Source: Macrostomum lignano (Eukaryota). From it: DNA of 64,000 nucleotides. The notes under the pieces were generated by a model. It had not been told where the DNA came from, ran no database searches, and saw only the letters and a list, made by a program, of their open reading frames with translations. A program made the translations under genes and the position numbers. The DNA lies in the NCBI GenBank assembly GCA_002269645.1, contig NIVC01000247.1:559095-623094 (forward strand), in the 5' to 3' direction. Positions 3,362-64,000 of this stretch are shown here, in pieces (within the stretch, counting starts at the first letter, position 1; every line of letters begins with the position of its first letter).

Positions 3362-3374
3362 GGCCATAAATCAC
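3362..3374 (+). repeat. Left target-site duplication of the LINE (GGCCATAAATCAC)
   Basis: The identical 13-mer occurs at 9183-9195, immediately after the element's 3' tail. Confidence 0.8.
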
Positions 3375-34130: not shown

Positions 34131-34221
34131 CATCTTGTTTCCCTCTTCCTCCCTCTTTCTCCCTTCCTCTCTCTTATTTTCTCCTACTAGACTTTTCTTA
34201 TCCATACCGCTCTCCAGAACA

Positions 34222-40200: not shown

Positions 40201-43200
40201 TCGTCTCAAAATCAATGACCAATCAAACAGGGACACCTGCTGCATCAAAGCTGCCGAAAAAGCTGCAAAAATGGTCACTTTGAAATCGTCAAGTTTCTCC
40301 TCTCACAAATCAATGACCAATCAAACAGGGACACCTGCTGCATCAAAGCTGCCGAAAAAGCTGCAAACAATGGTCACTTTGAAATCGTCAAGTTTCTCGT
40401 CTCACAAATCAATGACCAATCAAACAGGGACACCTGCTGCATCAAAGCTGCCGAAAATGCTGCAGACAATGGTCACTTTGAAATCGTCAAGTTTCTCCTC
40501 TCACAAATCAATGACCAATCAAACAGGGACACCTGCTGCATCAAAGCTGCCGAAAATGCTGCACTCCGTGGTCACTTTGAAATCGTCAAGTTTCTCCTCT
40601 CACAAATCAATGACCAATCAAACAGGGACACCTGCTGCATCAAAGCTGCCGAAAATGCTGCACTCCGTGGTCACTTTGAAATCGTCAAGTTTCTCCTCTC
40701 ACAAATCAATGACCAATCAAACAGGGACACCTGCTGCATCAAAGCTGCCGAAAATGCTGCACTCCGTGGTCACTTTGAAATCGTCAAGTTTCTCCTCTCA
40801 CAAATCAATGACCAATCAAACAGGGACACCTGCTGCATCAAAGCTGCCGAAAATGCTGCACAATGGTCACTTTGAAATCGTCAAGTTTCTCCTCTCACAA
40901 ATCAATGACCAATCAAACAGGGACACCTGCTGCATCAAAGCTGCCGAAAATGCTGCACTCCGTGGTCACTTTGAAATCGTCAAGTTTCTCCTCTCACAAA
41001 TCAATGACCAATCAAACAGGGACACCTGCTGCATCAAAGCTGCCGAAGATGCTGCAATTCGTGGTCACTTTGAAATCGTCAAGTTTCTCGTCCCACAAAT
41101 CAATGACCAATCAAACAGGGACACCTGCTGCATCAAAGCTGCCGAAAATGCTGCAAACAATGGTCACTTTGAAATCGTCAAGTTTCTCCTCTCACAAATC
41201 AATGACCAATCAAACAGGGACACCTGCTGCATCAAAGCTGCCGAAAATGCTGCAAACAATGGTCACTTTGAAATCGTCAAGTTTCTCCTCTCACAAATCA
41301 ATGACCAATCAAACAGGGACACCTGCTGCATCAAAGCTGCCGAAAATGCTGCACTCCGTGGTCACTTTGAAATCGTCAAGTTTCTCCTCTCACAAATCAA
41401 TGACCAATCAAACAGGGACACCTGCTGCATCAAAGCTGCCGAAAATGCTGCACTCCGTGGTCACTTTGAAATCGTCAAGTTTCTCCTCTCACAAATCAAT
41501 GACCAATCAAACAGGGACACCTGCTGCATCAAAGCTGCCGAAAATGCTGCACTCCGTGGTCACTTTGAAATCGTCAAGTTTCTCCTCTCACAAATCAATG
41601 ACCAATCAAACAGGGACACCTGCTGCATCAAAGCTGCCGAAAATGCTGCACTGTGGTCACTTTGAAATCGTCAAGTTTCTCCTCTCACAAATCAATGACC
41701 AATCAAACAGGGACACCTGCTGCATCAAAGCTGCCGAAAATGCTGCAAAGATGGTCACTTTGAAATCGTCAAGTTTCTCCTCTCACAAATCAATGACCAA
41801 TCAAACAGGGACACCTGCTGCATCAAAGCTGCCGAAAATGCTGCACTCCGTGGTCACTTTGAAATCGTCAAGTTTCTCCTCTCACAAATCAATGACCAAT
41901 CAAACAGGGACACCTGCTGCATCAAAGCTGCCGAAAATGCTGCACAATGGTCACTTTGAAATCGTCAAGTTTCTCGTCCACAAATCAATGACCAATCAAA
42001 CAGGGACACCTGCTGCATCGAAGCTGCCGAAAAAGCTGCAAACAATGGTCACTTTGAAATCGTCAAGTTTCTCGTCCCACAAATCAATGACCAATCAAAC
42101 AGGGACACCTGCTGCATCGAAGCTGCCGAAAAAGCTGCAAACAATGGTCACTTTGAAATCGTCAAGTTTCTCGTCCCACAAATCAATGACCAATCAAACA
42201 GGGACACCTGCTGCATCAAAGCTGCCGAAAATGCTGCACTCCGTGGTCACTTTGAAATCGTCAAGTTTCTCCTCTCACAAATCAATGACCAATCAAACAG
42301 GGACACCTGCTGCATCAAAGCTGCCGAAAATGCTGCACTCCGTGGTCACTTTGAAATCGTCAAGTTTCTCCTCTCACAAATCAATGACCAATCAAACAGG
42401 GACACCTGCTGCATCAAAGCTGCCGAAAATGCTGCACTGTGTCACTTTGAAATCGTCAAGTTTCTCCTCTCACAAATCAATGACCAATCAAACAGGGACA
42501 CCTGCTGCATCAAAGCTGCCGAAAATGCTGCACTGTGGTCACTTTGAAATCGTCAAGTTTCTCCTCTCACAAATCAATGACCAATCAAACAGGGACACCT
42601 GCTGCATCAAAGCTGCCGAAAATGCTGCACTCCGTGGTCACTTTGAAATCGTCAAGTTTCTCCTCTCACAAATCAATGACCAATCAAACAGGGACACCTG
42701 CTGCATCAAAGCTGCCGAAAATGCTGCACAATGGTCACTTTGAAATCGTCAAGTTTCTCGTCTCAAAATCAATGACCAATCAAACAGGGACACCTGCTGC
42801 ATCAAAGCTGCCGAAAAAGCTGCAAAAGATGATGACTTTGAAAGCGTCAAGTTTCTCCTCTCACAAATCAATGACCAATCAAACAGGGACACCTGCTGCA
42901 TCGAAGCTGCCGAAAAAGCTGCAAACAATGGTCACTTTGAAATCGTCAAGTTTCTCGTCTCACAAATCAATGACCAATCAAACAGGGACACCTGCTGCAT
43001 CAAAGCTGCCGAAAATGCTGCAGACAATGGTCACTTTGAAATCGTCAAGTTTCTCCTCTCACAAATCAATGACCAATCAAACAGGGACACCTGCTGCATC
43101 AAAGCTGCCGAAAATGCTGCACTGTGTCACTTTGAAATCGTCAAGTTTCTCCTCTCACAAATCAATGACCAATCAAACAGGGACACCTGCTGCATCAAAG

Positions 43201-46200
43201 CTGCCGAAAATGCTGCACTCCGTGGTCACTTTGAAATCGTCAAGTTTCTCCTCTCACAAATCAATGACCAATCAAACAGGGACACCTGCTGCATCAAAGC
43301 TGCCGAAAATGCTGCACTCCGTGGTCACTTTGAAATCGTCAAGTTTCTCCTCTCACAAATCAATGACCAATCAAACAGGGACACCTGCTGCATCAAAGCT
43401 GCCGAAAATGCTGCACTGTGGTCACTTTGAAATCGTCAAGTTTCTCCTCTCACAAATCAATGACCAATCAAACAGGGACACCTGCTGCATCAAAGCTGCC
43501 GAAAATGCTGCACTGTGGTCACTTTGAAATCGTCAAGTTTCTCCTCTCACAAATCAATGACCAATCAAACAGGGACACCTGCTGCATCAAAGCTGCCGAA
43601 AATGCTGCACTGTGTCACTTTGAAATCGTCAAGTTTCTCCTCTCACAAATCAATGACCAATCAAACAGGGACACCTGCTGCATCAAAGCTGCCGAAAATG
43701 CTGCACTCCGTGGTCACTTTGAAATCGTCAAGTTTCTCCTCTCACAAATCAATGACCAATCAAACAGGGACACCTGCTGCATCAAAGCTGCCGAAAAAGC
43801 TGCACTCCGTGGTCACTTTGAAATCGTCAAGTTTCTCGTCCCACAAATCAATGACCAATCAAACAGGGACACCTGCTGCATCAAAGCTGCCGAAAATGCT
43901 GCACTCCGTGGTCACTTTGAAATCGTCAAGTTTCTCGTCCCACAAATCAATGACCAATCAAACAGGGACACCTGCTGCATCAAAGCTGCCGAAAATGCTG
44001 CAGACAATGATCACTTTGAAATCGTCAAGTTTCTCGTCCCTCAAATCAATGACCAATCAAACAGGGACACCTGCTGCATCAAAGCTGCCAAAAATGCTGC
44101 AGACAATGGTCACTTTGAAGTCGTTGATTTTCTTTTTTCGTGTCTCTCAAGTCCCGATAAGAGAGCGAATCTCCGTTTCCAATGCGCAGTCGCAGCTTGC
44201 TCTCGTCTTCACGAAAATTTCGTTGCCTCCCTGAGCCTCGAGCCCGACTGGCTCTTTCAATCCAGCACCATCCTCAGCTTCATTGCAGCAATGGCCATCG
44301 AAGGCAGCAACTCTGTTCTCACCGACACCCTCTCTCGAATGCAGCCAGATCAAATCACACAGCTGCTCTGTCTCTCCATCTCTCAAAGACACGTCGCTGC
44401 TGCCGCCACACTGCTCAATCATAAGCGATTCAGCACACAGCATGTCGATCTCCCAGACGACAACACCGGAGCCACCGCTCTCATGCTCGCAGCTGATGCA
44501 GGTCATCACGAACTCATTCACAAACTCATCGATCTCGGCGCCTCACTGCACGCTCAAGACACTCACGGTCGCACTGCTCTGTCACGAGCCTGCCAAGCCG
44601 GTCACGTGCGAGCAGCCAAGACTCTCATCGACAATGGAGCCGATGCCAGCCATCGAGACAATCAGGGCCTCACGTGTGCGCATCTCGCACAGCGATTTGA
44701 GCAGCGGCAGGTGCTGCGGCTGCTAAATCCCACCGAGTCAGTTGCCATTTGTTGTCATTAGTTGCAATTCTACTTGCAATCACTTCGCTACTTTACCTCG
44801 CTTTCCTTCACGCATTCCAGAATAACACAGCACCTACAGCCAGCCGCTCACCGCCTCCATCCGTGAGTCTGACCGCTTTCATTCCCCATTTCCTTCTTTG
44901 GGTGGAGCTTGGGCCACTCAGCAAATCCGCCTCCACTCACTCCACTCTCACCTCTCCCCAGACTCTGGGACCACTCCGAGCAGGACCGCCGTCTAAGCAG
45001 GGAGCTGCATCGACTGCTCAGCGATGCGGGATTCACCGAGCAGAGAGCAAAGTGTCAGCAGAGACTGGCTGACTGGCTGCAACAAGTCGCTCGAGTCCTC
45101 ACACAGGATGGCAGGCAGATGACGGGCAGCTACGCAGAGGGCTGGGCCAACAGTCTGGTGCAAGTGAACGGCAGGACAGCTGCAGACTCGGACATTGACT
45201 GGACTGTGCTGGTTGCTGGGCAAGAGTTCCATCTGGAAGGTGGCTGTGAACAGAAGAGTTGGCGTGATTCCTGCAAAGACGCCACTCCGCTGCAGGTCAA
45301 GGAGGGCCACGCACAGGTGGCAGTCGGAGCAGGTCAGTGAGGCTGGGTTCTTCATCCCAATCCCCATGCCAATCCAAGACTCTTAAATCTGCTCAATTAT
45401 TTATTGGATACCGAGTGGCTGAATTTCTGAGTTCATAAGTTCAACATGAGTTCGAAACCTTGTTGAAATACCATGCAGCACTCATTTCGCTTGAAATACA
45501 AATTGTGGCAACTAATCACTCCGATCGCACCTATCTCATAGGTTATGAAACAATTATTATGCAATTTCAGGCACATACATTATAAGCATGCATACAGTAC
45601 GCAATACGTGAAAACCTGATCTGAATGAAAGTAAAATAATTGTCTCTTTACCTAACCATCATCAACTCCGTTGCGGTGCCCCTGCAAGCATTGCAACGAA
45701 TTATTGATTGCAGTAGTAGCACTGACACATGAGAAGAACGAACTCAACTAACACATTCAGGCAGTTTCAACCAACCCATCTTTTCCACTCGCCACAAAGC
45801 GACTCTCCGCTCACTGCGCTCTGCAGGCAGCCAACCTGCAGTGACAGCCACGGCGTGCGGTGTGCGGCCTGCACAGGACACGTGCCATGCGATCGAGTGC
45901 TGCAGCAGTTTCTGTAAGGACAGGATTGAAAAACTGGTTGGATACAGTGGTTTTGTTCACCTCGTTCGGGCGACCAGACCGAGCTCGACCAACGAGCTCA
46001 GAGTGAGCTTCAGCTTCCTAGAGAAACACATCATGAGACGGCTGAGCACAGTCCAGGGCCAGTTGTTCACACTCATCAAGTTCATCTTCAAGAGACACTT
46101 GCCGCTCACTCTGGCCACACCTGGACTCAAGACCTACCATGCAAAGACTCTACTATTCTTCATGCTGGAGAAGCATGGCACAGATCCTAAAACTGAGGCT

Positions 46201-47304
46201 TGGCAGCCCCACAATCTGATCGCTCTGCTCAAGGAGTCTCTCGACATGATGCTGAGCTTCATCGACTCAAGCAGCAGCTCGCCCGATGAGTGCATGCCGC
46301 ACTTCTTCATGCTCAACGCTCCGCTCTACTTCAAGAACGCTGGAATCGGCGGCGACTTTGACAACACGAAGGCGAGGATTCGAGACCGACTTTGTGAGCT
46401 GAGAAGCGACATCGGCGGAGTGGTCGAGCAGCTGAGGAGACTCGTGAGACCTCTGCAGTCAGAGAAGTTCTATTTTCACCCGTTCACTCTGCTGCCTCTG
46501 ACAGCGCCGCCTGCTGTCACGAAGATCAGGGAAGGAAGTGATCGCTATCCAACAATGTACTACAAGTTCGCAGACGTGTACAGTGTGGTGCACCAGTGTG
46601 TGAGCGAGCTGCAGTCGGAATCGAGAGACAGAGACACCCTGATGAGGCAGCTCAGTCTCCTGCATGAGCTGCAGTGGTGCAAGTGCGCCGCCCTGTGCAT
46701 GACCGCCATGGCGCATTTGAAGTTCGGAGAATCTGAGGAGGCTGATAGACTCGCGATGGAGCTGCAGAGACATCAGGTTGAGTCAGGGTTGAAGCCAAAT
46801 GATATTCGAAAAGAGAGCTACATTACAAAACTGCCAGAAGACTCAGACTGGGCGTGGAGGTTCTGCCTCCCCTGCGACTCTCCGCCTCGCTTCCCATTCC
46901 TTCCCGAGTTCACGCAGACTCTGTTCACAGCCAGACTGTCGCAGCCTCTCTCCTCCCACCTGTACGTAAACTTCCGCTGCCTGAGCTGGAGTCTCCAAGC
47001 TGAGCTGCTCCGCAATCGCGCACCTGCAATCGCATTCGATCATTGGATTGAACAGCTGCTTGGAGACCCGGACTTGGAGGAGCTGCTCACTCTGGCTCAC
47101 TACAGCGACTGCCGCGAGCACGTGGAGCTCAGCCTGCAGCAGATGGAGATGATCGAGAAAGAGAGACGCGTCGCCATGGAGACGCAGGACGAGGAGAAGA
47201 TCGGCTGGGTCAGGCAGAAGCTGGAGAGACTTGATGCAGCAGCTGGAGTCCTCAAAGTCGAGTCGCAAAGTGGAGGTCGGAAAATGAAGGCTGAGTCAGA
47301 CTGA
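34222..47304 (+). CDS. Ankyrin-array + Mab-21/cGAS-like nucleotidyltransferase (cGLR-like) gene; predicted exons 34222-44736, 44821-44862, 44962-45332 and 45827-47304; exon 1 has many frameshifts as assembled
   Basis: ATG at 34222 (MGQNQS). All three introns are GT-AG (donors GTCAGT, GTGAGT, GTCAGT) with compatible phases 2/2/1. NTase motifs: GSYAEG...SDIDWTVLV, QDTCHAIEC, LRVSFSFLEK, LKTYHAKTLLFFMLE, CMPHFF. Confidence 0.85.
34303..44122 (+). repeat. Coding tandem array of ~99 copies of a 99-bp (33-aa) ankyrin-type repeat
   Basis: Unit DTCCIKAAENAAxxGHFEIVKFLLSQINDQSNR; AAxxGHxEIVxxLL is the ankyrin core. Array length of ~9.8 kb divided by 99 bp gives the copy estimate. Confidence 0.95.
44440..44730 (+). 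CDS. Canonical ankyrin repeats (about 3) at the end of exon 1
   Basis: DNTGATALMLAADAGHHELIHKLIDLGA, DTHGRTALSRACQAGHVRAAKTLIDNGAD, DNQGLTCAHLA. Confidence 0.93.
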
Positions 47305-49740: not shown

Positions 49741-49849
49741 AGGGTGTGAGTGTTCCTGGGAAAGTCCAGATGCTTAGATATATATTAAGCTTATCACTTT
49801 TTATAGAACAGGCCTACTAACTTTCTTAGTAGTGAAGACGTACAGAATC

Positions 49850-51630
49850 GGACAGAATTACCTTGACTTTGCTCCCAATTAGGACAGAATTACCTTGACT
49901 TTGCTCCCAATTAGGACAGAATTACCTTGACTTTGCTCCCAATTAGGACAGAATTACCTTGACTTTGCTCCCAATTAGGACAGAATTACCTTGACTTTGC
50001 TCCCAATTAGGACAGAATTACCTTGATTTTGCTTCCAACTATATAGATAGACTGTAAAAAATTAACCCGCAGTGACACGCACTAATCCAACGGAGACCAT
50101 CACTGACCTAATCCAAGTGTCGATCAGTGACCCGCTTAATGGCAAATGATCTTCACTGACCCGAACTAATCCAAGTGGCCTTCAGTAACAGGCATTAATC
50201 CAAGTGGCCTTTAGTGAACCGCACTAATCCAACAGTGACAATCACTGACCCGCACTAATCCAATTGACCATCAGTGACCCGCACTAATCCAAGTGACCAT
50301 CAGTGACCCGCACTAATCCAACAGTGACAATCACTGTCCCGCACTAATCCAAGTTACTATCAGTGACCCGCACTAATCCAAGTGGCCTTCAGTGACCGGC
50401 ACTAATCCAAGTGAACTTTAGTGAATCGCACTAATCTACGTGACTCAGTTACTGGACAAAATTACCTGAAATTTGCTCCCCACTACACAGATCTGGAGGC
50501 CGGACAGAATTACCTGAAATTTGCTCCCCACTACACAGATCTGGAGGCCGGACAGAATTACCTGAAATTTGCTCCCCACTACACAGATCTGGAGGCCGGA
50601 CAGAATTACCTGAAATTTGCTCCCCACTACACAAATCTGGAGGCCGGACAGAATTACCTGAAATTTGCTCCCCACTACACAGATCTGGAGGCCGGACAGA
50701 ATTACCTGAAATTTGCTCCCCACTACACAAATCTGGAGGCCGGACAGAATTACCTGAAATTTGCTCCCCACTACACAAATCTGGAGGCCGGACACAATTA
50801 CCTGAAATTTGCTCCCCACTACACAAATCTGGAGGCCGGACAGAATTACCTGAAATTTGCTCCCCACTACACAGATCTGGAGGCCGGACAGAATTACCTG
50901 AAATTTGCTCCCCACTACACAGATTTGGAGGCCGAACAGAATTACCTGAAATTTGCTCCCCACTACACAAATCTGGAGGCCGGACAGAATTACCTGAAAT
51001 TTGCTCATTACTACACAGATCTGGAGGCCGGACAGAATTACCTGAAATTTGCTCCCCACTACACAGATCTGGAGGCCGGACAGAATTACCTGAAATTTGC
51101 TCCCCACTACACAGATCTGGAGGCCGGACAGAATTACCTGAAATTTGCTCCCCACTACACAAATCTGGAGGCCGGACAGAATTACCTGAAATTTGCTCCC
51201 CACTACACAGATCTGGAGGCCGGACAGAATTACCTGAAATTTGCTCCCCACTACACAAATCTGGAGGCCGGACAGAATTACCTGAATTTTGCTCCCCACT
51301 ACAGTAGAAGGCATGAGGGGGCTTCTGGGACAAAATTTTTCACCTCCTCCATAATCCCATTAAATCCATCCATATTATCCCCGACAGAATCAGAAAAAAA
51401 GGGGGGGTCGCCCTTGCTCCGAAAACATCCTCCATAATCCCATTAAATCCATCCATATTATCCCTGACAGAATCAGAAAAAAAGGGGGGTCGCACTCGCT
51501 CACAAAACATCGTCCATAATCCACCTAAATCCATCCATATTATCCCTGACAGAATCATGAAAAAGTGGAGGGGTCGCACTTGTTCTGAAAACTTCGAACA
51601 TAATCCTATTAAATCCATCCATATTACCCC
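49850..51630. repeat. Putative left terminal region with four tandem arrays: 32 bp x6 (49850-50040), ~29 bp (50070-50440), 48 bp x~18 (50454-51303) and ~83 bp x4 (51350-51630)
   Basis: The 32-bp and 48-bp units share GGACAGAATTACC..TTTGCTCCC; the 83-bp unit contains GACAGAATC. Confidence 0.9.
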
Positions 51631-51836
51631 CGACAGAATCAGACAGTGGACACCTGTTATGCTCGCTGACACTGACATAATCCACTGACATCCACCCATA
51701 GCATGTTCGAAACAATCAGAAAATAATCTGCATTCTTCTCCCCACATTCAATTTGCAACGCGAAACCAGATCCCAAAGATTTTAAATTATCAGCGCAGGG
51801 TCCTCACCCTTTGAAAAAATTAAATTCTCAATAAAA

Positions 51837-52076
51837 ATGTTTCCAGTTGTCTCTCCAGGTTCTTATTATACTCAGCCTAATCCATTGTACAAATCCAAGT
51901 ACCAATGCAAACTTGAATGCAGCGAATACATGAGAAAATATTGGCCCAACGTTGATATCAATGTCCCTAATATTAATCTAGCTCTCCAAAGACACTGGTT
52001 TCATAAGTATGGAGTAACCTATGTAAAAGATTACGATAGCTACTATAACTTTGCAGAAATCATTAGGCAATTGTGA
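51837..52076 (+). CDS. Hypothetical viral protein (79 aa)
   Basis: ATG in the same AAAAATG context as the other viral ORFs; no recognisable motif. Confidence 0.5.
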   Translation: MFPVVSPGSYYTQPNPLYKSKYQCKLECSEYMRKYWPNVDINVPNINLALQRHWFHKYGVTYVKDYDSYYNFAEIIRQL

Positions 52077-52080
52077 TTTC

Positions 52081-52951
52081 TTACATTCTTTCAATGATCA
52101 ACGTCAATACAAACTCTTCCCCATTAAAATCAACGCCCATCCCATCTTCAGTCTCAAACTGTAGCACAATCTCGTGAATCTCCTTATTACTCAATACAAC
52201 TCTTTTCACTGGATTTGGTTTCTCTACCACCATCTGTCCTCCAGCAACAGAGTTGGAGATGTTGTACAAAATATTCGTTCGCTTTCCCTTAAATACCCAA
52301 TCAAGACTGAGATTGCTTCTGATTAGAATATTCAAACCCTTTACAATGTCTGCAATATTGGGTGCTAAGAACAAACCGCTTACATTTTCCCGGGCCATTT
52401 TAACGGTCCCCGATGCTTGAGTGGCGGTCCGCGCCGCGGATTCTGCCTTATAAACTTTCTTCTCGAATCCCAGTTCCCTATACCAAGTGTCATCTTTAAA
52501 CTCAACCTCCGCATCTTTGTGAACTTGCATGACCACTCTCATTACAGTGAGATCATAGGTTAGTTTGACAGGGAACAGTTTCTTCTCTGGCTTACTCGAA
52601 TCAGGTGTCTCAAAAGTCAAAATGGCCTCTCTTAGTGAAGACATTTTCTAGAAAGTTATTGTAGGTATCCACACTTTGCGTGCTCACATGGAATACCACA
52701 GGGTCTGCTGCTGCACCTTTCCATTTGTAATAAAACTTATTATTTGCTGCCATCACATTAGGAACGTTTGACCAACCGGTGAAGTCGTTAAGATAGACAT
52801 GGTAATTAGCACCTGGATCCAGGCGAATCGCCTGCTCTAATTTTTCAACAAATATCCCGTTTGAGTCATTAATTCGCCCAGTTATTGTAATAGGAATGCT
52901 CTCCTTAGAGTGAGAAACAATATTATTTAGTCTTTCAGCAATCGCTTCCAT
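52081..52951 (-). CDS. Minor capsid protein (penton, single jelly roll), one frameshift near 52630
   Basis: AIRLDPGANYHVYL...WSNVPNVMAANNKFYY and C-terminal EIHEIVLQFETEDGMGVDFNGEEFVLTL match the Polinton mCP pattern; it sits directly downstream of the MCP. Confidence 0.8.
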
Positions 52952-52971
52952 TTTTTTCACAAAAAAAATAT

Positions 52972-54258
52972 TTAAACTTTACTGGATGAATTGTTGATCA
53001 TGTTAAGCTTCACCTTCCTCTCAAATGCATAGATAATGTACAGGTCCACGGGTGTTGCGGTAGTCCTTTCAATGTTATTCACGATATTCACAGGGCTGTT
53101 ATCAGTAGGCATTTGTCTGGCAGACACATCAGCGCCAAACATCGGATATAGAGTTCCATATTGAAGAGCAGTGATAGCAATTCCATTGTTCTCTTTCACA
53201 GCCAAGTCGACCAACTCGCTGTAAAATTTGCTAATCTTGTTCTGACTGAAATCTCCATTTTGTGGCAGTGCAGGGTAAAGATTATCACTGATTTCATGCT
53301 GAATGGACCGCACGTCTCCATGCATGTAGCGTATGATGCTATTTGGGTTTCTCATATTAATAATGATATACCTTGGATTGCTGCATGATCCCTCTTTAAT
53401 GCAGATGTTTGTTCTAGTTTCGTTTCGCTCATCTCGACACATGTAGGCTGTGTATGCAACATCAATGTCCTTCTCTATTGCCTTGAGATAGTCTGCTTTT
53501 AGTGCAGTCTTTGGCTCAATGACTTCCAAATACAGCTCGATTCCGGTTAGCTTCACCTCCATCCTTGTGTGGTCCGCCCCAGTCCACAACACTCTACTGC
53601 GATCATCTCTAGTCATCTTAAAGGTGTAGCTAAAGTTACTAGTCAGTCGATTAAATGTATTACAGAATCCACTCATGAATCTCAATGGTACAAATACATC
53701 AACAGACCGATACTGTGGGTTCTTAGCAGCATCATCAGCACCTTGCAATGCATAGTTGTATCTCTTCTTCCTCTTTTTATAGCCACTGTCATTGATGTCT
53801 CCTTCTTTTTCATCTGCAATAAAACCCGCACCACTTCCCAACTGAATAAAATCAGGATTCTCGATCAAACAATGAGCGTCATAGACAATTCCAAAGTTGG
53901 CGATTCGCTCCAACTCGGTGCTCCCATTCGATACACTAAACTCCTTGAACATGTACGCCCAAAAGTTACTGATCAGAGCCACATCCGCATCATGCTTGTC
54001 AACGTTAGCACGAGCCGCATCCGCACCACCTTTTGTCTTGAATTGAAATGTCATATGGAAGCCGCTCTTAAGACTGTGCACACTAACCAGAGACGAACAT
54101 CCATTGTATGTAAATGTCAGTGTTTGACCTGGACCCAAATTAGTTTCATTCTGGTTCTCGTGACTCGGAACTCTAACTTGTGTCGCTTTGATTGTGCTAT
54201 CATCACTCAAAATAGGCTTGTTAATTTTGTAGAAAACTGGTGTCAGTGGGTCGTTCAT
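52972..54258 (-). CDS. Major capsid protein (double jelly roll)
   Basis: Uninterrupted 428-aa beta-rich ORF with VFVPLRFMSGFCNTFNRL...FKMTR, NPRYIII and YGTLYPMFGADVS, as in Polinton/adintovirus MCPs. Confidence 0.85.
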   Translation of the reverse strand: MNDPLTPVFYKINKPILSDDSTIKATQVRVPSHENQNETNLGPGQTLTFTYNGCSSLVSVHSLKSGFHMTFQFKTKGGADAARANVDKHDADVALISNFWAYMFKEFSVSNGSTELERIANFGIVYDAHCLIENPDFIQLGSGAGFIADEKEGDINDSGYKKRKKRYNYALQGADDAAKNPQYRSVDVFVPLRFMSGFCNTFNRLTSNFSYTFKMTRDDRSRVLWTGADHTRMEVKLTGIELYLEVIEPKTALKADYLKAIEKDIDVAYTAYMCRDERNETRTNICIKEGSCSNPRYIIINMRNPNSIIRYMHGDVRSIQHEISDNLYPALPQNGDFSQNKISKFYSELVDLAVKENNGIAITALQYGTLYPMFGADVSARQMPTDNSPVNIVNNIERTTATPVDLYIIYAFERKVKLNMINNSSSKV

Positions 54259-54288
54259 TTTTTAACTAAAAATAAAATAAAATAAGAA

Positions 54289-55503
54289 ATGAAGCGGAAA
54301 AGTTCATATCATATCTCTGAACTAGAAAAGCTGGCGCAAGCAGAGAAACGAGTTACCGGACTAATCAACAAAGAACAACAATCTTACAATGAATTCGTCC
54401 AAGCAGCCACCGAATTTCACAAACCTGGATACACAGAAGCGAAGAAAAACATCGACACTGTGAAGGAAACAATTGATGATATTCAAGAGAGCCAGTTGCA
54501 AAACACATTGGGTAAAATTCCATCTTCACCGGGACAACCACAGGCTCAGCAACCAGGACAACCAGTGCAGATGAAAGTGACAGATAACTTTTTTGGCCCC
54601 GTAACGGATGATGGAAAATATATATTTGGAATTAGCGCCTGGCGAAAAAATATCACCGGGGAACCGGCGGATTACAACATTGAAGTGACGAAGGAAACTA
54701 TTTCAATCAATAAAGGCGCAGAAACTAAACGAATCCCCTTCACTCAAAGTTTACTCGACTACATGACTAAAAATCAGGAAAAAATATCCGAGAAGCAATT
54801 AAAGAATTATAGAGATCTGGTTACCTTCGCTTTAGAGAGGGACATCGACATTCTCAAGAACAACGGTGTTTTGAAAGTTTTACATGAAAACAGGATTGAC
54901 TTGAACAGGTTTAGAAAATACAAATACTTTAAACAATGGTTTGGTTTGCCGGATCAAGAAGAGGTCATAAGACAACAACCACAACAACCACAGCCACAAC
55001 AGCAGCAACCACAACAGCAGCAACCAAAACAACAACTACAACAACCACAACAGCAGCAACCACAAACACAACCACAACCACAACAACCTCCACCGCCACA
55101 GCAACAAATCACACCCGAACAAGTACTAGAAGCGCTTGAAAAAGCAGGGCCAAATGAGATTTCCCAGTACAAAGATACAAACCCTGATACTTGGCGACAA
55201 TTAGAGCGGCTCTCCCCAGAACGAATGAAGCGAATCAATGACAGAGTATTCACACCTCAACAAAGACAAGCGCCACATGACAGTTCCTCCTCTGACCAAT
55301 CATTCGAATCACCTCCAAGCTCTTCCGGAAAAGGCATGCCTGAATTCTACAAGCGAGTAGCGGTTCTTCTAGGAGCGGCAAAGACCGGAATGAAAGATGA
55401 AAATAGAAAAGAATTTGTCAACATCCTGGACAAAATGATGGAAAAGAAGTATATTGACAAACGGGCGAGAGAGCTTCTGCTTTCGCGGTTCAACAAAAAA
55501 TAA
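54289..55503 (+). CDS. Polinton accessory protein with a Gln/Pro-rich linker and a conserved-looking C-terminal helix pair
   Basis: 404 aa. The C-terminal FYKRVAVLLGAAKTGMKDENRKEFVNILDKMMEKKYI resembles a motif I recall from Polinton conserved ORFs; unverified. Confidence 0.7.
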   Translation: MKRKSSYHISELEKLAQAEKRVTGLINKEQQSYNEFVQAATEFHKPGYTEAKKNIDTVKETIDDIQESQLQNTLGKIPSSPGQPQAQQPGQPVQMKVTDNFFGPVTDDGKYIFGISAWRKNITGEPADYNIEVTKETISINKGAETKRIPFTQSLLDYMTKNQEKISEKQLKNYRDLVTFALERDIDILKNNGVLKVLHENRIDLNRFRKYKYFKQWFGLPDQEEVIRQQPQQPQPQQQQPQQQQPKQQLQQPQQQQPQTQPQPQQPPPPQQQITPEQVLEALEKAGPNEISQYKDTNPDTWRQLERLSPERMKRINDRVFTPQQRQAPHDSSSSDQSFESPPSSSGKGMPEFYKRVAVLLGAAKTGMKDENRKEFVNILDKMMEKKYIDKRARELLLSRFNKK

Positions 55504-55519
55504 TTTATTTCAAGTAAAA

Positions 55520-55917
55520 ATGCCACTTATTTTTGAGAAAGACGTGGACAAATACTATGACAAAGAGGAACTTAATCTCATTAAACGCGGATCTGGACTA
55601 TTCCCTGCAGGCCACTATCCAAGAAAAGAACGCTCTGGGAATGGCCTTGCCGATTTGATCGCTCAGGGGCCAAGATTTTTAAGGTCATTGGAGAGAACAA
55701 AGAGAACATCAAGAACGTTGCCGAAGCGGGTGGCAGTGTAGCCACAGCAGCCAAAAAGATAAAGGATACTGTAACACCTAAACAAGAGATTCAACCTCCA
55801 CTGGCCCCGCTGGCTCCGCTGGCTTCGCTGGCCCCAAATCCAGACAGTGTGGACCCTGCAGTCTATGAGAAGATGAGAGCTAGCATTAAAAAAGGAAGTG
55901 GTTTCAAATTTGACTAA
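55520..55917 (+). CDS. Small core/membrane-active-like viral protein, one frameshift at the GGGG near 55666
   Basis: Adding one G gives a ~132-aa protein with KRGSG, RSGNG and KKGSG motifs and an amphipathic stretch GLADLIAQGAKIFKVIGENKENIKNVA. Confidence 0.65.
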
Positions 55918-55960
55918 AGGGTACTTTCCGAGGGTACAAGAAATGTAAAGGTACAAGACT

Positions 55961-56169
55961 AGTCCCAAAATGACACATCTAAGTCCCAAAATGACACATC
56001 TAAGTCCCAAAATGACACATCTAAGTCCCAAAATGACACATCTAAGTCCCAAAATGACACATCTAAGTCCCAAAATGACACATCTAAGTCCCAAAATGAC
56101 ACATCTAAGTCCCAAAATGACACATCTAAGTCCCAAAATGACACATCTAAGTCCCAAAATGACACATCT
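55961..56169. repeat. Perfect 21-bp intergenic tandem array, 10 copies
   Basis: agtcccaaaatgacacatcta repeated head to tail with no spacers. Confidence 0.96.
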
Positions 56170-56213
56170 TCTAAATTATTTATTATTAAAAAAAATTTTA
56201 TCATAGAAAAAAA

Positions 56214-57014
56214 ATGGACTTTTCAAGCGACTTCAATCCTCACTGGACGCGTAATCAGATTAAGTTTTCTCATCATGAGTCAATCCCGAGTCACTTCAGA
56301 TGCATTGTTGTTGGTTCATCAGGTTCAGGTAAAACATTCAGAGTCTTTAACATGCTTCTTAGACCTGGCTTTATCGACTATGACACTCTGCACATCTACT
56401 CTCCCACATTGTATCAAGATGAGTATAAAATGCTGATTTCTGGATTGCAAAACAAACTGAACAAAGAGGACATTATTCAATGTTTTAATAACCAAATGAG
56501 CCTTCCCAGTAACCCAGAAATTGTAGCTGCTGAATATGCAAAGCACCTCAAAGACAATGAAAAATGGCAGAACATTAAAGTGTTCACCTATGGAGATCCA
56601 CAGGCTGATCCAAAGACCAAACTTCTACCCCAACCAGATGAGCTAGAAAAGGGGAGAAAGCATTTGATCGTCTTTGATGATTGTATGACAGGCCCACAGA
56701 AGCAGATAGAAAACTATTTTACAAGAGGGCGACATAACAATTGTAATGTAATTTACATTGCACAGAATTGGTTCGAGCTCCCGAAAAAAACAATTCGTGG
56801 GAACTGCAATCTGATTCTCCTGTTTCCAACCATTCCACAGGACAGGTTAAAAAGATTTTACAATGAGGTCATTGCGCCTGCCTATTTCATAAATCCAACA
56901 AAAAACTCAAGCAGAAAGATTTCACAAGAGGAATTCGTTAATCTTTGCTATGACAAGTGGAATCAGCCTTACCAGTTTGTGATTATCAGCAAAGAAAAAA
57001 GAACTGTAATTTAA
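56214..57014 (+). CDS. Genome-packaging ATPase (A32/FtsK-HerA family)
   Basis: Walker A GSSGSGKT, Walker B LIVFDD, and FTRGRHNNCNVIYIAQ motif. Confidence 0.95.
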   Translation: MDFSSDFNPHWTRNQIKFSHHESIPSHFRCIVVGSSGSGKTFRVFNMLLRPGFIDYDTLHIYSPTLYQDEYKMLISGLQNKLNKEDIIQCFNNQMSLPSNPEIVAAEYAKHLKDNEKWQNIKVFTYGDPQADPKTKLLPQPDELEKGRKHLIVFDDCMTGPQKQIENYFTRGRHNNCNVIYIAQNWFELPKKTIRGNCNLILLFPTIPQDRLKRFYNEVIAPAYFINPTKNSSRKISQEEFVNLCYDKWNQPYQFVIISKEKRTVI

Positions 57015-57030
57015 AATTTGCTATTAAAAG

Positions 57031-57690
57031 ATGTCGATAAACTTTGCAGGTGAATCCATTTCTGGCAACAGCGCTCTTACATCAGCTCAGATATCCATCC
57101 TTGACAGGCGATATATCAACAGCGACGAAAAGATCCCAGAGATCAAACTGAATAAAAACAGACTGAAAGCCCTAGAGCGCTCCATGCACCAGTTGCAAAT
57201 AAACATGGAAGATCTCAGGCTTAAAGTAGCTAGGCAGAAGTTTGAAAGTGATAAGCTTTATGTGCCGTTGTTAAACGCAACTAATGAACTAAGGTCAGAA
57301 ATAACTTCGATAGTCTCGCTAATCAACGGCTTGAGATCATCAGTTAATCTTCTGGGAAATTCCACTGATAGACGGATGCGTATTCTCGAAGGAGGAGTTT
57401 TCACAAACACAGCTAAAGTAAATAATTTAGAAGAGTTCATGACTCAGTCAACATCGTTGCATGATCGAATCAAAGAAAGACTTGAAGCATTAAAGAGAAA
57501 GGATGTATCACACAGTAGCTATCTAAACGGAATGTATAGCTCTTGGGGTAAAATACTAAGGAGGCTTAATCGTCTGGAGAGAACACTCAATCTTCGTGAT
57601 ATTGCTATTGATGAAGCAGAATCTGCTGCTCGTCCGGTCATTTCTGCAGATGAAATTATCAAAAAGAAAACAGATCTTTCAACTGGGTAG
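57031..57690 (+). CDS. Hypothetical coiled-coil viral protein
   Basis: 219-aa open frame with extended heptad-like L/I periodicity. Confidence 0.65.
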   Translation: MSINFAGESISGNSALTSAQISILDRRYINSDEKIPEIKLNKNRLKALERSMHQLQINMEDLRLKVARQKFESDKLYVPLLNATNELRSEITSIVSLINGLRSSVNLLGNSTDRRMRILEGGVFTNTAKVNNLEEFMTQSTSLHDRIKERLEALKRKDVSHSSYLNGMYSSWGKILRRLNRLERTLNLRDIAIDEAESAARPVISADEIIKKKTDLSTG

Positions 57691-57727
57691 TTTTTTAATT
57701 TTTTTATTTTTTTTTCTAGGGAAAAAA

Positions 57728-58441
57728 ATGGCCCAACAAAATTCTCTATACGATCAGTCTCAATACGTTGAACCTAAAATACCGACAGCACCAAACTCAA
57801 TGGCACCGAATTCGAACACACAAAACCTGGCACCGAATCTGAATGCACCCCAATATGAGCAACAAAAACTCTACCCCGTCATTACTTGTAACTCTCAACA
57901 GTTTCGACTAGTGGAGATTCAAAAAATGCGCGATGATCTTGAAAAAAATATTTTCCACAACACAAAGAAAATTAAGCGCTATGACAACCACTGTAAATTT
58001 TTCGACTACAGCAATATGATTCTAGGATCTGTGTCTGTTCTATCTGGATCTGCTGCAGCTGTCTCAGTGTTGCCAGTCATCACAGCCCCAATCGCAATCC
58101 CGCTCGGCTCTGTGGGTGCTGCATGTGGACTTATTTCAGCAATTACTGGAGCATTAGCGCGAAACAGGCGAAAAAAACTAAAGCAGCTACAGGAGAAGCA
58201 AGTAAAAGAGAAAGGGGTACACACTTCAATCATAGGGTACATTTCAAGGGCAATCGAGGATAAGTTCATTTCAGAGGATGAGTTCAAAACCATTCAGGAT
58301 CTTTATGAACAATCAATTCGAATGAACTTGAACATGGTCGGTATTGATGACATGAGTCAGCTGAGAAATGAACTCGAGAAAGTTCTTCAACATTATGTGG
58401 AAAGAAGGACAACGAGAAGTACAACGAGGAATGCACAATGA
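57728..58441 (+). CDS. Polinton-type membrane protein with a hydrophobic hairpin
   Basis: ATG at 57728 in AAAAAAATG context. LYP...QQFRLVEI, a long hydrophobic Gly/Ala-rich segment, basic RNRRKK, and ISRAIEDKFISEDEF. Confidence 0.75.
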   Translation: MAQQNSLYDQSQYVEPKIPTAPNSMAPNSNTQNLAPNLNAPQYEQQKLYPVITCNSQQFRLVEIQKMRDDLEKNIFHNTKKIKRYDNHCKFFDYSNMILGSVSVLSGSAAAVSVLPVITAPIAIPLGSVGAACGLISAITGALARNRRKKLKQLQEKQVKEKGVHTSIIGYISRAIEDKFISEDEFKTIQDLYEQSIRMNLNMVGIDDMSQLRNELEKVLQHYVERRTTRSTTRNAQ

Positions 58442-58445
58442 ACCC

Positions 58446-58847
58446 TTATGAAACACAGGTACGAATAATTTCCTTGTAGGTCTTTCGTGTTTTGGTCATT
58501 GCATACAAAACAGTCATGCACAGCTCACCGCAAATATCACTGCTAAGACCTTGGAGAATAAAGTCTGAGCGATAAATTTTTTTATTATTTTTTCCCTTCA
58601 TATAATTTCTTAGCTCTTCTGGTACCGCCGTCCCATAGCTATCGAAGTAACAACACTTGTGCTTGCGATCGGGATCAATCACCCAGCAAACCCAATGAGA
58701 TCCTGGCTTATCGGTGGTGTCAAAGTTCACGATGCCACATTCTCCTCCCAGAGGAAAATCAGGCAGAGTGTCCCTCATAAATATTCCTCTAAAGTTTGGG
58801 ATTTCCAGTTCGTTAGCCAAATCTTCAAGAAAGTTATTTGTTGTCAT
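58446..58847 (-). CDS. Adenain-like (C5) cysteine maturation protease
   Basis: Catalytic order H (GSHWV), D (YFDSYG), Q (ILQG), C (DICGELC). Confidence 0.93.
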   Translation of the reverse strand: MTTNNFLEDLANELEIPNFRGIFMRDTLPDFPLGGECGIVNFDTTDKPGSHWVCWVIDPDRKHKCCYFDSYGTAVPEELRNYMKGKNNKKIYRSDFILQGLSSDICGELCMTVLYAMTKTRKTYKEIIRTCVS

Positions 58848-58900
58848 TTTTTATGAGGTTTATTAAACTTTCTCTTAAACCTAAACCCAACCTCCACCTC

Positions 58901-61900
58901 CTAAACCCAACCTCCTAAACCTAATCTCCAATGCCCGAACGGTAGACTGTTGATATTGTCATCAAAAATGAATCTCTTGTTATCTGCACCTGACAGTCCA
59001 ATCTTCTTTTGCTGAATTGTGTGAATAATATGGTTTTTAGATTGTAGCTTTGAGAACTCATGTGATGTCTTTTTGTTGCAATTCAAGGCGTCTCTGTATT
59101 CAGCTTCATTAAGTTCCTTCCTAACCACACGTTTCGGAATTCCCTTTGATTTTTTAATTGGGTCTGACGACTCACATTTTATAAAATAGGACTTTGCTCT
59201 CAACCCAATGAATTCAGTGATTATGTCACCAACAATCTCGTCCTTCATTTTCCCAATCACTTTCTTGTTAGTGGCGTCAAACATTTGATCGCCATTCTGT
59301 GTCCTACAAAATTCATCATACTCAGACAAGTCAAACAAATCTTTTTGCTGCAGCATGTCCTGATAAATGTCCTCTGTTTGAATGTCCATAATAAAACTGT
59401 CTGTGTCAGTGTACAAGAGTTTCATTTTATCCTTGTACTGCTGCTTCATGCCATAGAAGAACTGGTACATCAGACGTTTTGATTCGTCGAGAACAGTGAC
59501 ACCTGTATAGATCGGCTTGCGCAGCGTCACCTTGGTTTTGTAAAATATGATCACACCTAAGTAGCTATTGAAGATATGGAGTTCTTTGAACGTTGGCTTT
59601 GACATATTTGCCTGAATAACAGCAGGCTCTGATGAGGTAACAAGTTTCAGGTTTGTTCTTTTCCGCTCATTCTCAAGAGTCTTGCCATAGACAGAGTTGT
59701 TGGCCAACTTAAAGAGGTTCTTGTCAAAGTCGTTGGTTGCTTTGGTCCTAAACTGGGTGTTCTTATCAATGTAGGGTTTCATCCACGCTTCCTCTGTAAA
59801 TGTAAGAGCCCGGTGAACTTTGGTGACCCTGCAACCCAGTGAGATAAAATATTGAAGCAGTTTGTAATGGATTTTGTAACGTGTCTTGTTGTTTAGATTC
59901 TGTGTTAGTTTCTCTGTATGTTCTTTTTCTGTTCCTGACAGGTGCCAAGTTCCATTATTATCATTGGGAGTTTCGATTATTTTCGGGCACTTGATGTTCC
60001 CTGGGAAGGGTGGAAAGTCAGAGAAATAGTCGTGAAGCTCTGGTGGAATGTAAACATCAACCTCATAAATGGCAGCCAATGAAAAGTCCTGTTTGAATTC
60101 TGATGAGGGTAGCCATCGAAAATCTCTAACTGGAAGATCTTGACTCATCGCCCACCCGTAGAGATTATTAGCGTCCAAGTAAGTAATGTAGTTTGAGGGC
60201 TGCTCCTTATTGTAAGATCCAATGTAGGGGTTGTTTGCTTTTGCATACCTGTTAACACAAATTGAGATTCCCCCTCGCTTTGACGATTCGACAAAATTGT
60301 ACATGTCAATGTCTGTAAGAAGTTCAATGTACCAATCTGGATCTTGATCCCATTTCATTTTAAGCAAAGATTCCCAGCTAGTGGCAGGCAGAGACACATA
60401 ATGTGCTGGATCGAGGCCGTATGCTGTGTACCAGGTGTATCTAAAGGTTTCAAACACATCGGCCAGCAGAAACACATCTGTGAAGAGGTAAAGCAGGTGA
60501 TACTGGAAGAAGTTTTGACAATTAAAGTAATTATAGACATGCTTCGCGTGCTCATAGTCTTTGTCAGAGATTCCAGAGTCTGTTAGTTTTGAAAAGAACT
60601 TCTCCTGTGGTGGTAAACCATCTTCAAATACGTGATACCCAGTAATATTTTCATAGGGGTAGAAGCCTTTCTTTCTTAAAAGTTTAAATGATTCATCACT
60701 GTTGTTAATTTTACTTGCAAACATCTTTGTATATGTACATTGTTCATCTTTTAGATTCTTGCTTAGTTCGTCTAGACTGGCAGCTAGAAATTGATATGAA
60801 TCCTTCAGTCTTATTTTACCTTTACCTAAATTATCCTGTTTAATATCAACACACTTAAACTTCTCCTTGTTCTCTGCGATGCAATCAAGGTGTATGTCTG
60901 GAATCATGCCGATTTTTTCAACTATTAAATGCATGTCATAGTTCTTTGCGTTGTGACAAAATATCGTTAGATCATGAATGTTCGATTTTAGCTTTAGATT
61001 ACAGGTGTTATGCGCTGCACCTCTAAATTTCCCAGTAAAGTGGCAGTGGTCCCTAACGGTGGGGTTTTTAATATTAGTGCAAGTTAAATGTTTCCTGCAG
61101 ATGTGGCAATGAGTTGCTGATAGGAAATTGCTTTCATCCTCCTCAGACATCATTATTGGAACAGGTTGAAGGGTGCTAATCACTTTTTGCAACTCTAACA
61201 TTCTGGCAATAAACTGCTCCACACACTGCTCTCCAAAGAAATAATTATACTCAACAAGTCCTTTTGTATTAATAAAGGCATATGCTACTGAATTGGGGAC
61301 ATGTTTTTGAGTTTGAGTTTGTTTTTGAGTTTCCGGCACGATTGAGCATTCGAAATCAGCATATACAACAAATGGGAGCTTCTCCATCTTGTGATAGTTC
61401 TTAAATCGGAGATACTTCTCTTCAGCTGAAGGAAGAGAGCAGTTTGTTGGGTGATCCTCGCATGATAATTCATGCTCTGCTAGTTTTTCAAAGCGTTCAG
61501 GTCCACTGTAATGCTTAAGGCACAAGCGGCAGATGGCAACAGCCTCGTGATGATTATTCAACTGCTTGTGAATGAGTCTTGAAAGATCTTTAATCCAAAC
61601 ATAGTGAGCCTCCTCTAGTAAATTACCAATCACTAGAAGATCCACTTCAGTCCGCCTTTTCCCCTCAGGATCTAAAACGTCTTTGCTACATCTGACCGGT
61701 TGAACTTTCTCAGTTTTTTTCACTCCACTCAAAGACTGTGATTCTATTTTGTTATTAAACACTTCTTCTAGCTTTGGGATCTGAGAGATCGCCAAGCCTC
61801 CTTTGTCAAACCTGATTCCCTTCTTTTCGCATTCAATGAGATAGTAGTTGAAATAATTTTGATAATTTGAGGTTCTTTCGGGGTGGTGAGGGACACAAAA

Positions 61901-62759
61901 AGTGCAGAAAGAACTGCCCATAGGCACAGCAATTGTCTTTATTTTAACATTTATGCAAGCTTTTTTGCCGGCTAGCTTGTGGGAGCTCTATATAAGAGGA
62001 GGCTTTAAGTGGGTCATATTTCATGACCATGACAGTCGCTCTTTGAATCCCTCCCACGACCCATCCGGAACCTCTGGATGTAAACGCTTCAATTTTCTTA
62101 GTGACATCTTGAAGGAATGGATCCAGTGTGTCTGTAGGGGTGAATGGCTTTGCCTTTGTTGTCATGTAATACTCGAGATGCTCAGTGGGTTTCGCAGGCA
62201 TATAAAACGCAATCTTGAATGATATCTGTAGTTTAAAAGTCTTGCGTGTTTTGAGTGTGTGATCAACAACTGATTGGATGCTGTGTTTATAGTCGTAGAT
62301 ATTTGCGGTGGTACCGTTGGTGCCGTTAATTGGGATTGTGTACTCTATGTAATGTTCTGTAAACTTTAATGTGCAAAATTAATCTCTTCAGTGGCAAGCT
62401 CCGACTCTTTTAAATGGATTAATTGCTCTAATTTCTCTTGTTCCTGCTTATTTTGTGGGTACTTTGCTTTTTCACCAGTGAGAGTTTCGTATTTGTTAAC
62501 TAAGTTGCGACTCCTCTCTTGGTGTTCCTTTGCAGAATTTTTTATAGGCGCATACTGGTTTGATTCTAATTGATTGATGATTTCCAACTGTTTTTCATAG
62601 CTTCCCAGGTGACCAGGGTCGGTGTTAAACTTTTGTTTACATGCTTCTCTTAGTGAATTACTTTTGTCTTGAAATGAGACGCCTTTTAAGGTGTAGGGTA
62701 GGTAAATGAGACGAAAAATATTTGTTGACTAAATCTCTTGCTGGATTGGCTTTTGGCAT
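58901..62759 (-). CDS. polB: Protein-primed family B DNA polymerase; core uninterrupted to ~61900, N-terminal part (to the ATG at 62759) broken by several 1-bp indels
   Basis: YADFEC, CHIC...DHCHFTGKFRGAAHNTCNL, HNAKNYDMHLI, DSYQFL, YLDANNLYGWAM, KLANNSVYGK, YTDTDS. Upstream frames give GSGW...KYDPLKASSYIELP and KKACINVKN. Confidence 0.96.
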
Positions 62760-62884
62760 TTTTTTCTCTAAAATATAAAAAAAAATTTGAGGGTTACCAC
62801 CCTGATAGAAAAGTTGAACTGTTTCTACATCCTATAAGTAGCGCTAGGTTTATGAAGCTGGATAAAGTGGGGTTTTAAACCTCA

Positions 62885-63332
62885 TCACATACGCATTATT
62901 GTAAACCCAGCATTGTGCAGTGTCATGATAGCTTTGACAATGTCAGACTTGCTTACAGAATTTTCATGCTCACAATCATCACGATCGGGCAGCCCTCTCC
63001 TGCCTTAATTGTTATACCTTTGTCTCTTGCAATCTTTTGCAATTCAAGCTGGTGGGCTCTATCATTACCAGCTTTAACAGCAGTTGCTACACTCCAGCTA
63101 CACCACCTGCGGCACTTACAGCGCCTGCGCAATGATCGGGAATAAGAGCTGCTAATGGTAGGATTCCTCCTGACTTTTCATCTGTGATGCTGTGTCTTTG
63201 CTCATTACACTGAAGTATTTGCTGCGTGGGATCGATTTTTACTTTGACACCTTTAATTGATATAAGACCTGGTTTCTTTGATTCAATGATTTTATTGAGT
63301 TTATTGATGGTTCTGGTTTCAATCTTTGTCAT
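62885..63332 (-). CDS. Adenovirus pX (mu)-like core protein precursor, frameshifted
   Basis: KSGGILPLAALIP(II)AGAVSAAGGVAG(G)VATAVKA resembles the adenovirus pX signal GGILPLLIPLIAAAIGAVPGIASVAL; the reconstruction needs 2-3 indels. Confidence 0.65.
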
Positions 63333-63419
63333 TTTTTATTAATATTTTAATTAATTTCTGTGTCAGCTGGTATCACTAGGAGTTCAGCTCTAGTGAATGA
63401 CCGCGTGGGGGATTTAGGG

Positions 63420-63737
63420 TTAAAGGCTGAGATAAAAGTAATAGTCACCGGAGTCGGAGGTAAAATGTCTGTCTATTTTATGCACATCAAGGCTGAAGTA
63501 TGGATCTGTAGCTCTTCTTTTGGTGTCTTTCTCTAGCTCTCCAGGTAGATATAAAAAGCGTAGAAACTCAGAGTTTGTCAGTATGTATGGTGATTCAACT
63601 CCTGGAAGCTTAGGGTAGTTCGAGTGTGTTTGTGTTGTGCGTGTTGGTGGGGTTGTCGTGTTGTTGTCTGTTCTATGAGATGCCTTAAGTTCGACAGTGT
63701 CTTGTTTAATTGCATGGGATGGTTTCAATCCAGTCAT
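63420..63737 (-). CDS. Hypothetical viral protein, possibly the C-terminal part of a longer frameshifted ORF
   Basis: 105-aa open frame lying between the pX-like gene and the window end. Confidence 0.4.
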   Translation of the reverse strand: MTGLKPSHAIKQDTVELKASHRTDNNTTTPPTRTTQTHSNYPKLPGVESPYILTNSEFLRFLYLPGELEKDTKRRATDPYFSLDVHKIDRHFTSDSGDYYFYLSL

Positions 63738-64000
63738 GCGTGTGACTTCATTGTTCAGTTGCTCTATAACAGTGGGGAGTCTTTCTGTCCACTTGGTATA
63801 GTACTGACCACTTTTTAGTTTCAGCTCTTCAGCTGTCTGCTTAGTGAATAGCCTCTTTGGCTAGAGTTAGATTGAATCTCTCAACGTACGCTTGATCCCT
63901 GTGCAAGTTTGTTCTTTCCGTAGCGAATCTCTGTATTGTGCTTTTCCATAAGGGATTTCACTGCACCCATGAATTCCTTACCCGGGTCGGTCATAAAGAT

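Follow-up and report, generated by a model that had tools for sequence, protein, structure and literature searches.

A Polinton/Maverick element from a probably young multi-copy family in Macrostomum lignano, with reading-frame breaks that may largely be assembly errors

We have analysed a stretch of 64,000 nucleotides of Macrostomum lignano DNA (assembly GCA_002269645.1, contig NIVC01000247.1, positions 559,095 to 623,094 of the forward strand), called the window below, whose right part carries a Polinton/Maverick element. The element is gene-dense from about 51.8 kb up to the window edge, and its GC content of 37-45% is below that of most of the host flank. Its visible genes encode a minor capsid protein, a major capsid protein (MCP) of the double-jelly-roll type, a packaging ATPase, a protease, a protein-primed DNA polymerase B (pPolB) and an rve integrase, together with six accessory open reading frames (ORFs). 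We consider that positions 49828-64000 hold the leftmost 14 kb of a single integrated copy, that this copy belongs to a multi-copy family that is likely young, and that most of the breaks in its reading frames are assembly errors; for this reading as a whole we estimate a probability of roughly 0.7. The original prediction for this locus was a near-intact virus with a full virion module, comprising both capsid proteins, the ATPase, the protease and pPolB, and with at least five accessory ORFs. On the one hand, the module is complete in that all capsid and packaging genes were found, all five core proteins were identified by profile, motif or fold, and six accessory ORFs were counted. On the other hand, the element cannot be called near-intact, because the window edge cuts it inside the integrase gene, so that about 128 integrase residues are missing and the right part lies beyond 64000. 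The integrase itself, present at 63350-64000, had been left out of the predicted gene list. With this gene, the element is, as judged from its gene set, a standard integrating Polinton, and an integrase-less virus was rejected as a candidate.

The likely left terminus is the hexamer AGTAGT at 49828-49833 on the plus strand, that is, the (AGT)2 end motif, which PMC8097293 gives as the commonest end motif of vertebrate Mavericks. This hexamer occurs 13 times on the plus strand of the window and is weak evidence when taken alone; its weight at 49828 comes from its position next to subterminal repeats. These repeats, with units of 32, 29, 48 and 82 bp in tandem, make up a non-coding left end (49834-51780) that is probably the terminal inverted repeat region. 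Neither an inverted partner of the left end nor a second copy of its repeats was found elsewhere within the 64-kb window, and the visible part contains no right terminal repeat or target-site duplication, since the right end lies past the window edge. The 32-bp units (49850-50038) and the 48-bp units (50454-51303) have about 14 identical core bases in common, and this shared core suggests predicted binding sites repeated near an origin. A further tandem repeat, of 21 bp in 10 perfect copies, lies inside the element at 55961-56169.

The MCP gene (52972-54258, minus strand) is open and encodes 428 residues. Its match to Pfam PF21738 (E 5e-5) is under the curated cut-off. A structure model of the protein from 25 sequences reached a pLDDT of 85 and a pTM of 0.87, and its best fold matches were the capsids of virophages, MELD-viruses and nucleocytoplasmic large DNA viruses (E ~1e-18 to 1e-15); at the level of the model, the double-jelly-roll fold is confirmed. 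The minor capsid (penton) gene (52081-52951, minus strand) has one break near 52.63 kb and was recognized as a two-piece profile match, the pieces being complementary halves: in a profile 254 positions long, one aligns to 7-100 and the other to 89-250. This profile was made from 15 ORFs of related loci, by which we mean 29 IMG/VR loci retrieved with the polymerase. The nearest Pfam-bearing Atlas cluster of the minor capsid protein is Sputnik minor capsid V18/19 (score 0.90), which we take as a lead only. Full-length relatives of the MCP were found in unrelated public assemblies at 71-78% and 43-44% identity. In a tree of 38 chosen rows, the MCP falls in a clade of eight rows with a support of 100, of which the other seven are unnamed; outside this clade, near-full-length matches are about 31-33% identical or less. 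This tree and the polymerase tree of 48 chosen rows described below are quick searches without bootstrap on a subset of the matches. A cluster look-up of 10 capsid relatives returned no informative names.

The packaging ATPase (56214-57014, plus strand, 266 residues, open) is of the A32/FtsK type (Pfam Pox_A32, E 3e-6). It carries the Walker A, Walker B and arginine motifs and is 31-35% identical to the ATPases of three of the related loci, L001, L004 and L007. The maturation protease (58446-58847, minus strand, 133 residues, open) is of the adenain type (Pfam Peptidase_C5, E 0.002), keeps the His, Asp, Gln and Cys motifs and is 38-41% identical to the proteases of the related loci; among PDB sequences it had three matches only, all of them adenovirus proteases (E ~0.05-0.06). 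The pPolB gene (58901-62759, minus strand) matches PF03175 (E 3e-16) and PF02945 (E 4e-4). Its catalytic core at 58901-61690 is open and holds all five of the exonuclease and polymerase motifs searched for, and its N-terminal part shows several frame changes between about 61.7 and 62.7 kb in a frame map against a 45-protein profile. Following PMC11161782, this N-terminal part is expected to contain the terminal protein and a vOTU protease, which are predicted here. The integrase gene (63347-64000, minus strand) is present as four frame pieces that correspond to residues ~129-326 of ~330, the C-terminal 60%, and its tblastn frame map places the frame changes near 63.92, 63.86 and 63.43 kb. For this integrase, 428 relatives had an E no higher than 0.001; the best of them reaches 64%, and PF00665 is present in each of the top six.

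The polymerase had more than 5000 matches at E up to 1e-30, and the 120 listed are 41-47% identical; the named ones among these 120, at 42-44%, belong to cnidarians, a sponge, Mytilus and two snakes. It also holds an endonuclease-VII-like segment, which is annotated in 31 of the 120 as well. In the 48-row tree, the polymerase forms a long unplaced branch (length 1.46) with no close relative, its best identity being 47%. The two snake polymerases in this tree (P0064 and P0095) nest, with support, in a clade with cnidarian and unnamed rows. Their placement possibly reflects cross-phylum transfer; an Alpha PolB snake clade is mentioned in PMC8502044.

The element recurs in short-read data. Among the 24 listed runs, 20 (seven studies, one organism label) contain 56-65% of the words of 56200-64000. 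Contigs of four runs from four studies were mapped on this stretch, 7.8 kb out of the 14.2 kb of the element that are visible, and in each of the four all 30 of 30 bins were covered, by 267 to 7444 contigs. These contigs form a deep family about 98.5% identical, with variant letters at 1.2-1.55% of places, mostly transitions (67 transitions and 26 transversions in run X1). In X1, 4041 of the 7444 contigs are at least 99% alike. Summed contig depth is not taken as a measure of copy number here, and the best-matching run may be the source sample itself. Considering the many variant contigs, we infer that the family is likely multi-copy, and the predicted youth of the virus holds at the family level on the same counts. 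None of the 24 runs is recorded as RNA, and run X9, which is RNA by guess only, covers coding and non-coding bins alike. One X9 contig (record 32, window 61930-62729) falls 30 letters short of the window across the polymerase N-terminus; therefore, the family has length variants there.

The same data bear on whether the element belongs to the host genome at all, since it could be a contaminant virus or the product of a chimeric assembly join. Starrett et al. (PMC8502044) describe contaminant adintoviruses in some assemblies, and at this locus the right end and its target-site duplication are out of view. However, the element is carried by the 20 runs of seven studies under one organism label, is deep and polymorphic in all four mapped runs, and borders host-like DNA with a typical end motif at the junction. 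Accordingly, we regard a foreign origin as highly improbable.

The reading frames of the element contain at least 14 length breaks. Twelve of these fall within the last 2.3 kb (61.7-63.9 kb), and two lie on the left (52.63 and 55.67 kb). The contig comparison covers 12 of 38 length rows and 40 of 137 substitution rows, the latter being the best supported ones and not a random sample. All 12 length rows lie at 61.7-63.9 kb, and they include all three of the integrase frame changes that were found independently by homology. At several breaks, and in each of the four runs, nearly all of the contig depth has another length than the window, and in 9 of the 12 rows the window is the shorter version. 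Because the contigs differ in length at these places and the host flank has the same pattern of base loss, we conclude that most breaks are probably assembly errors. This pattern is seen in a host array of 99-bp ankyrin units, in which 25 of 94 units depart from the period and each of these is too short; in the aligned units the deletions recur at few offsets, and no letter is inserted. The short units are probably assembly errors as well.

The original prediction had placed small indels at four sites (the minor capsid gene, GGGG at 55666, the PolB N-terminus and the pX-like gene), several of them in homopolymers, and had proposed that the apparent frameshifts may be sequencing errors. All four sites were seen, although the breaks total at least 14. 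The homopolymer context applies to about half of the single-base breaks, as 6 of 11 lie in runs of at least three equal bases against a background of 23%. Comparison with the short-read contigs makes error likely for the cluster at 61.7-64 kb, and it is not proven for this copy. The absence of in-frame nonsense codons from the core genes, also predicted, was borne out for the MCP, the ATPase, the protease and the polymerase core, which are all open.

The opposing explanation keeps the same family and takes this copy to be a real, recently dead fossil, with true mutations and perhaps a more decayed right part acquired from another copy by recombination. On the one hand, this copy differs from the common forms at about 1.2-1.55% of places with a transition bias, and at least five substitution sites in X1 keep a small residual depth of about 5-19 for the non-common letter, as a rare real copy would. 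Real gaps are also seen in other copies, in low-depth contigs, and vertebrate Mavericks are described as mostly degraded in PMC8097293. On the other hand, the breaks are about 20-fold clustered in 2.3 kb (12 there versus 2 in the 9.1 kb of other coding DNA; a rough p of 3e-7, which mixes read rows with frame breaks and leaves aside 26 unseen rows), whereas the substitution density is flat. In three long X9 contigs it amounts to 20 of 1276, 13 of 916 and 12 of 770 letters (1.6%, 1.4% and 1.6%), and the first two of these, which cover the polymerase core, have no gaps. Moreover, the 9.1 kb of coding frames contain no stop, whereas a divergence of 1.2% that arose neutrally in this copy would be expected to yield about 3.8 (p 0.02, or 0.15 if only half of it arose so), and in the host ankyrin array, too, bases are only lost. 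Among the 35 coding sites that could be classed from the 40 substitution rows, 17 are silent, 17 are replacements and one would be a stop if alone, with 28% silent expected; when nine rows in two tight clusters are set aside, 13 of 26 are silent against the same 28% (p 0.017). From the clustering of the breaks and the lack of stops, a dead fossil was rejected as the first choice, and we consider it rather unlikely.

Several points nevertheless weigh against reading most of the breaks as assembly errors. Rare variants are lost when contigs collapse, and a break that only this copy carries would therefore look no different. The substitutions that separate this copy from the common forms are real-looking and transition-rich, and 17 of the 35 classed change a residue. 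Low-depth X1 contigs have small gaps of their own where the window is open, so the family does include decayed copies. Off-period spacing is absent from ten of 11 short tandem arrays, which together span about 5.4 kb, and the assembly is therefore not error-rich throughout. Natural small indels are likewise biased toward loss and toward base runs. The rows compared, 12 of the 38 for length and 40 of the 137 for substitutions, are a part only, and the breaks at 52.63 and 55.67 kb lie outside the mapped stretch. Finally, at a site in the polymerase core near 60.1 kb the commoner form, with most of the contig depth in all four runs, would be a stop if alone; should this stop be real, the form amplified most in the family would have no working polymerase. 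As a general caution, a broken frame in a multi-copy element should not be taken for decay when the assembly is unpolished.

Two of the six accessory ORFs have relatives in the 29 IMG/VR loci. One of them, a 237-residue ORF with hydrophobic segments (57728-58441, plus strand), is common to related elements. It matches the ORF at 4475-5176 of L007 (tblastn E 7e-7; two-member profile E 2e-17), and its Atlas neighbours are unnamed clusters. The other (54289-55503, plus strand) encodes 404 residues with a Q/P-rich middle and is related by its C-terminus only. Its last 69 residues match a 10-member family of the related loci (E 4.5e-5 in a set of 18 pieces made up of test and decoy sequences), and a pairwise test of the whole protein was not significant. 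We consider this ORF likely to be a conserved Polinton accessory protein. A small ORF at 55520-55917 (plus strand) lies in two frames that meet near 55.67 kb, with the GGGG run (55666-55669) at the junction. From its G-x-G motifs and its position it is possibly a core protein, and no significant match was obtained to the similarly placed ORF of L007 and L004. The pX-like small basic protein (62950-63332, minus strand) is broken near 63.0-63.1 kb; its match to Pfam Adeno_PX (E 0.008) is under the cut-off, and its pieces did not match a four-member family of the related loci. The remaining two are a 79-residue ORF of no family (51837-52076, plus strand), which had no match among the 29 related loci, and a 219-residue coiled-coil-like ORF (57031-57690, plus strand), whose Pfam matches are weak and all under the cut-off. 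A fibre identity of the latter is unsupported, the fibre-like profile giving a non-significant E of 0.12.

The flank on the left is animal-like, with two G-protein-coupled receptor (GPCR) ORFs, a LINE, and an ankyrin and Mab-21 gene. The ankyrin units form an array of about 100 tandem 99-bp copies that encode ankyrin repeats (Pfam Ank), and the stretch at 34081-47304 (plus strand) ends with a Mab-21 C-terminal domain at 45733-47304. Between them, at 44873-45340, is a motif without a Pfam match that we take to be nucleotidyltransferase-like. From these parts, 34081-47304 resembles a cGAS-like/Mab-21 gene in which the ankyrin array is very long. The left end of the Polinton is 2.5 kb further right. 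The LINE is a non-LTR retrotransposon at 3680-9068 (plus strand) with endonuclease, reverse transcriptase and RNase H and a frame split near 6.2-6.6 kb; an RNase H remnant lies at 24472-25197. The GPCR ORFs (14752-15588 and 23009-23848, plus strand) are near-identical members of the rhodopsin family (7tm_1, Srw), consistent with a recent local duplication.

In replication, the polymerase would start at the ends of a free linear copy of the element, with its own N-terminal terminal-protein domain as the primer. New copies would be inserted by the integrase, each with a 6-bp duplication, and the element DNA may, as an optional step, be packaged by the ATPase together with the protease and the capsid proteins. 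These steps of replication, insertion and packaging are modelled on known Polintons, while the anatomy, folds, motifs and family depth come from the present analysis. We expect that the family is likely still mobile within the genome. Virion competence is predicted solely from gene content, which is common to intact Polintons.

The family may also be infectious, that is, made up of particle-forming polintoviruses that spread from host to host, with this copy as a fresh provirus. The complete virion module and the open, well-folding capsid would fit this. The full-length capsid relatives in unrelated assemblies would fit as well, and therefore the capsid appears to have been kept under selection in the lineage. 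However, intact Polintons have the same gene content, and according to PMC8097293 and PMC11131425 their particles have never been seen directly. The family is known here from assembled contigs, which cannot show free ends or particles. Two capsid-based scans found no related contig among 12 candidates from viral contigs and 215 from metagenome contigs, a weak result given that few patterns were used. We therefore judge an infectious family to be unlikely. It is more doubtful still that this is an active polintovirus lineage that forms particles, with a capsid clade of its own lacking a named member and many near-identical copies in a much-sequenced animal; if true, the host would be a ready system for the direct sight of Polinton virions. 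Whether animal Polintons form particles is an open question in both of these sources, which describe direct sight as still wanting. The present family is a reasonable place to search for them, as it is probably young and multi-copy, its capsid gene is open, and at least seven studies have released public data on its host.

In comparison with known systems, the element resembles the animal Polintons/Mavericks, a family now called Eupolintoviridae and formerly Adintoviridae (PMC12451622), in its PF03175-type pPolB, rve integrase, A32/FtsK ATPase, adenain, both capsid proteins and the (AGT)2 end. It differs from known Eupolintoviridae in the long branch of its polymerase and in a capsid clade whose other members are unnamed. 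The polymerase is probably of the Alpha class of Starrett et al. 2021 (PMC8502044), because it is of the PF03175 type and its named matches come from hosts such as Mytilus and snakes; Mytilus is listed among the Alpha maps in that paper, and the tree contained no reference Alpha or Beta sequence. In the scheme of Starrett et al., a PLA2X accessory gene marks the Mayetiola-class virion module, and GasderminX and Cupiennin genes mark the Beta-class one. The related loci L001, L004 and L007 come from IMG/VR as contigs 15.6-17.6 kb long, and their Polinton gene sets include phospholipase A2 (PLA2)-like genes. They share the polymerase (37-39%), ATPase, protease and capsid with the element, L001 and L004 match its minor capsid protein too (tblastn), the hydrophobic ORF is common to the element, L004 and L007, and the Q-rich ORF family is probably shared as well. 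In contrast, their gene order and strands are different, their capsids are 22-25% identical, and they have PLA2-like genes. Such genes are present as nine ORFs of the related loci, whereas a nine-member profile found none in 49828-64000; the gene may lie beyond the window. L001 also has an ORF that, from its motifs, we take to be integrase-like.

The element is also like the vertebrate Mavericks of Barreat and Katzourakis 2021 (PMC8097293) in its end motif, size class (12.7-24.6 kb) and six core genes. Their two-module layout is not kept, as the polymerase, protease, integrase and both capsid genes lie on one strand and the ATPase on the other. An undescribed lineage had been proposed for this host. 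At the sequence level, the polymerase and capsid trees agree with this, with the polymerase at no more than 47% and the capsid close only to unnamed proteins, and the lineage looks undescribed in the collections searched (Repbase and subscription journals lay outside the search). Polintons as such are on record in many animal phyla. PMC8097293 reports 134 intact Polintons in 17 vertebrates, bioRxiv 2023.08.22.554363 reports integrase-linked polymerases in 960 and 164 genomes, and Polinton-type insertions in flatworms are already noted in bioRxiv 2025.04.19.649669. Intact Polintons are thus known by the hundreds, and the element described here adds a divergent branch to them rather than a new concept.

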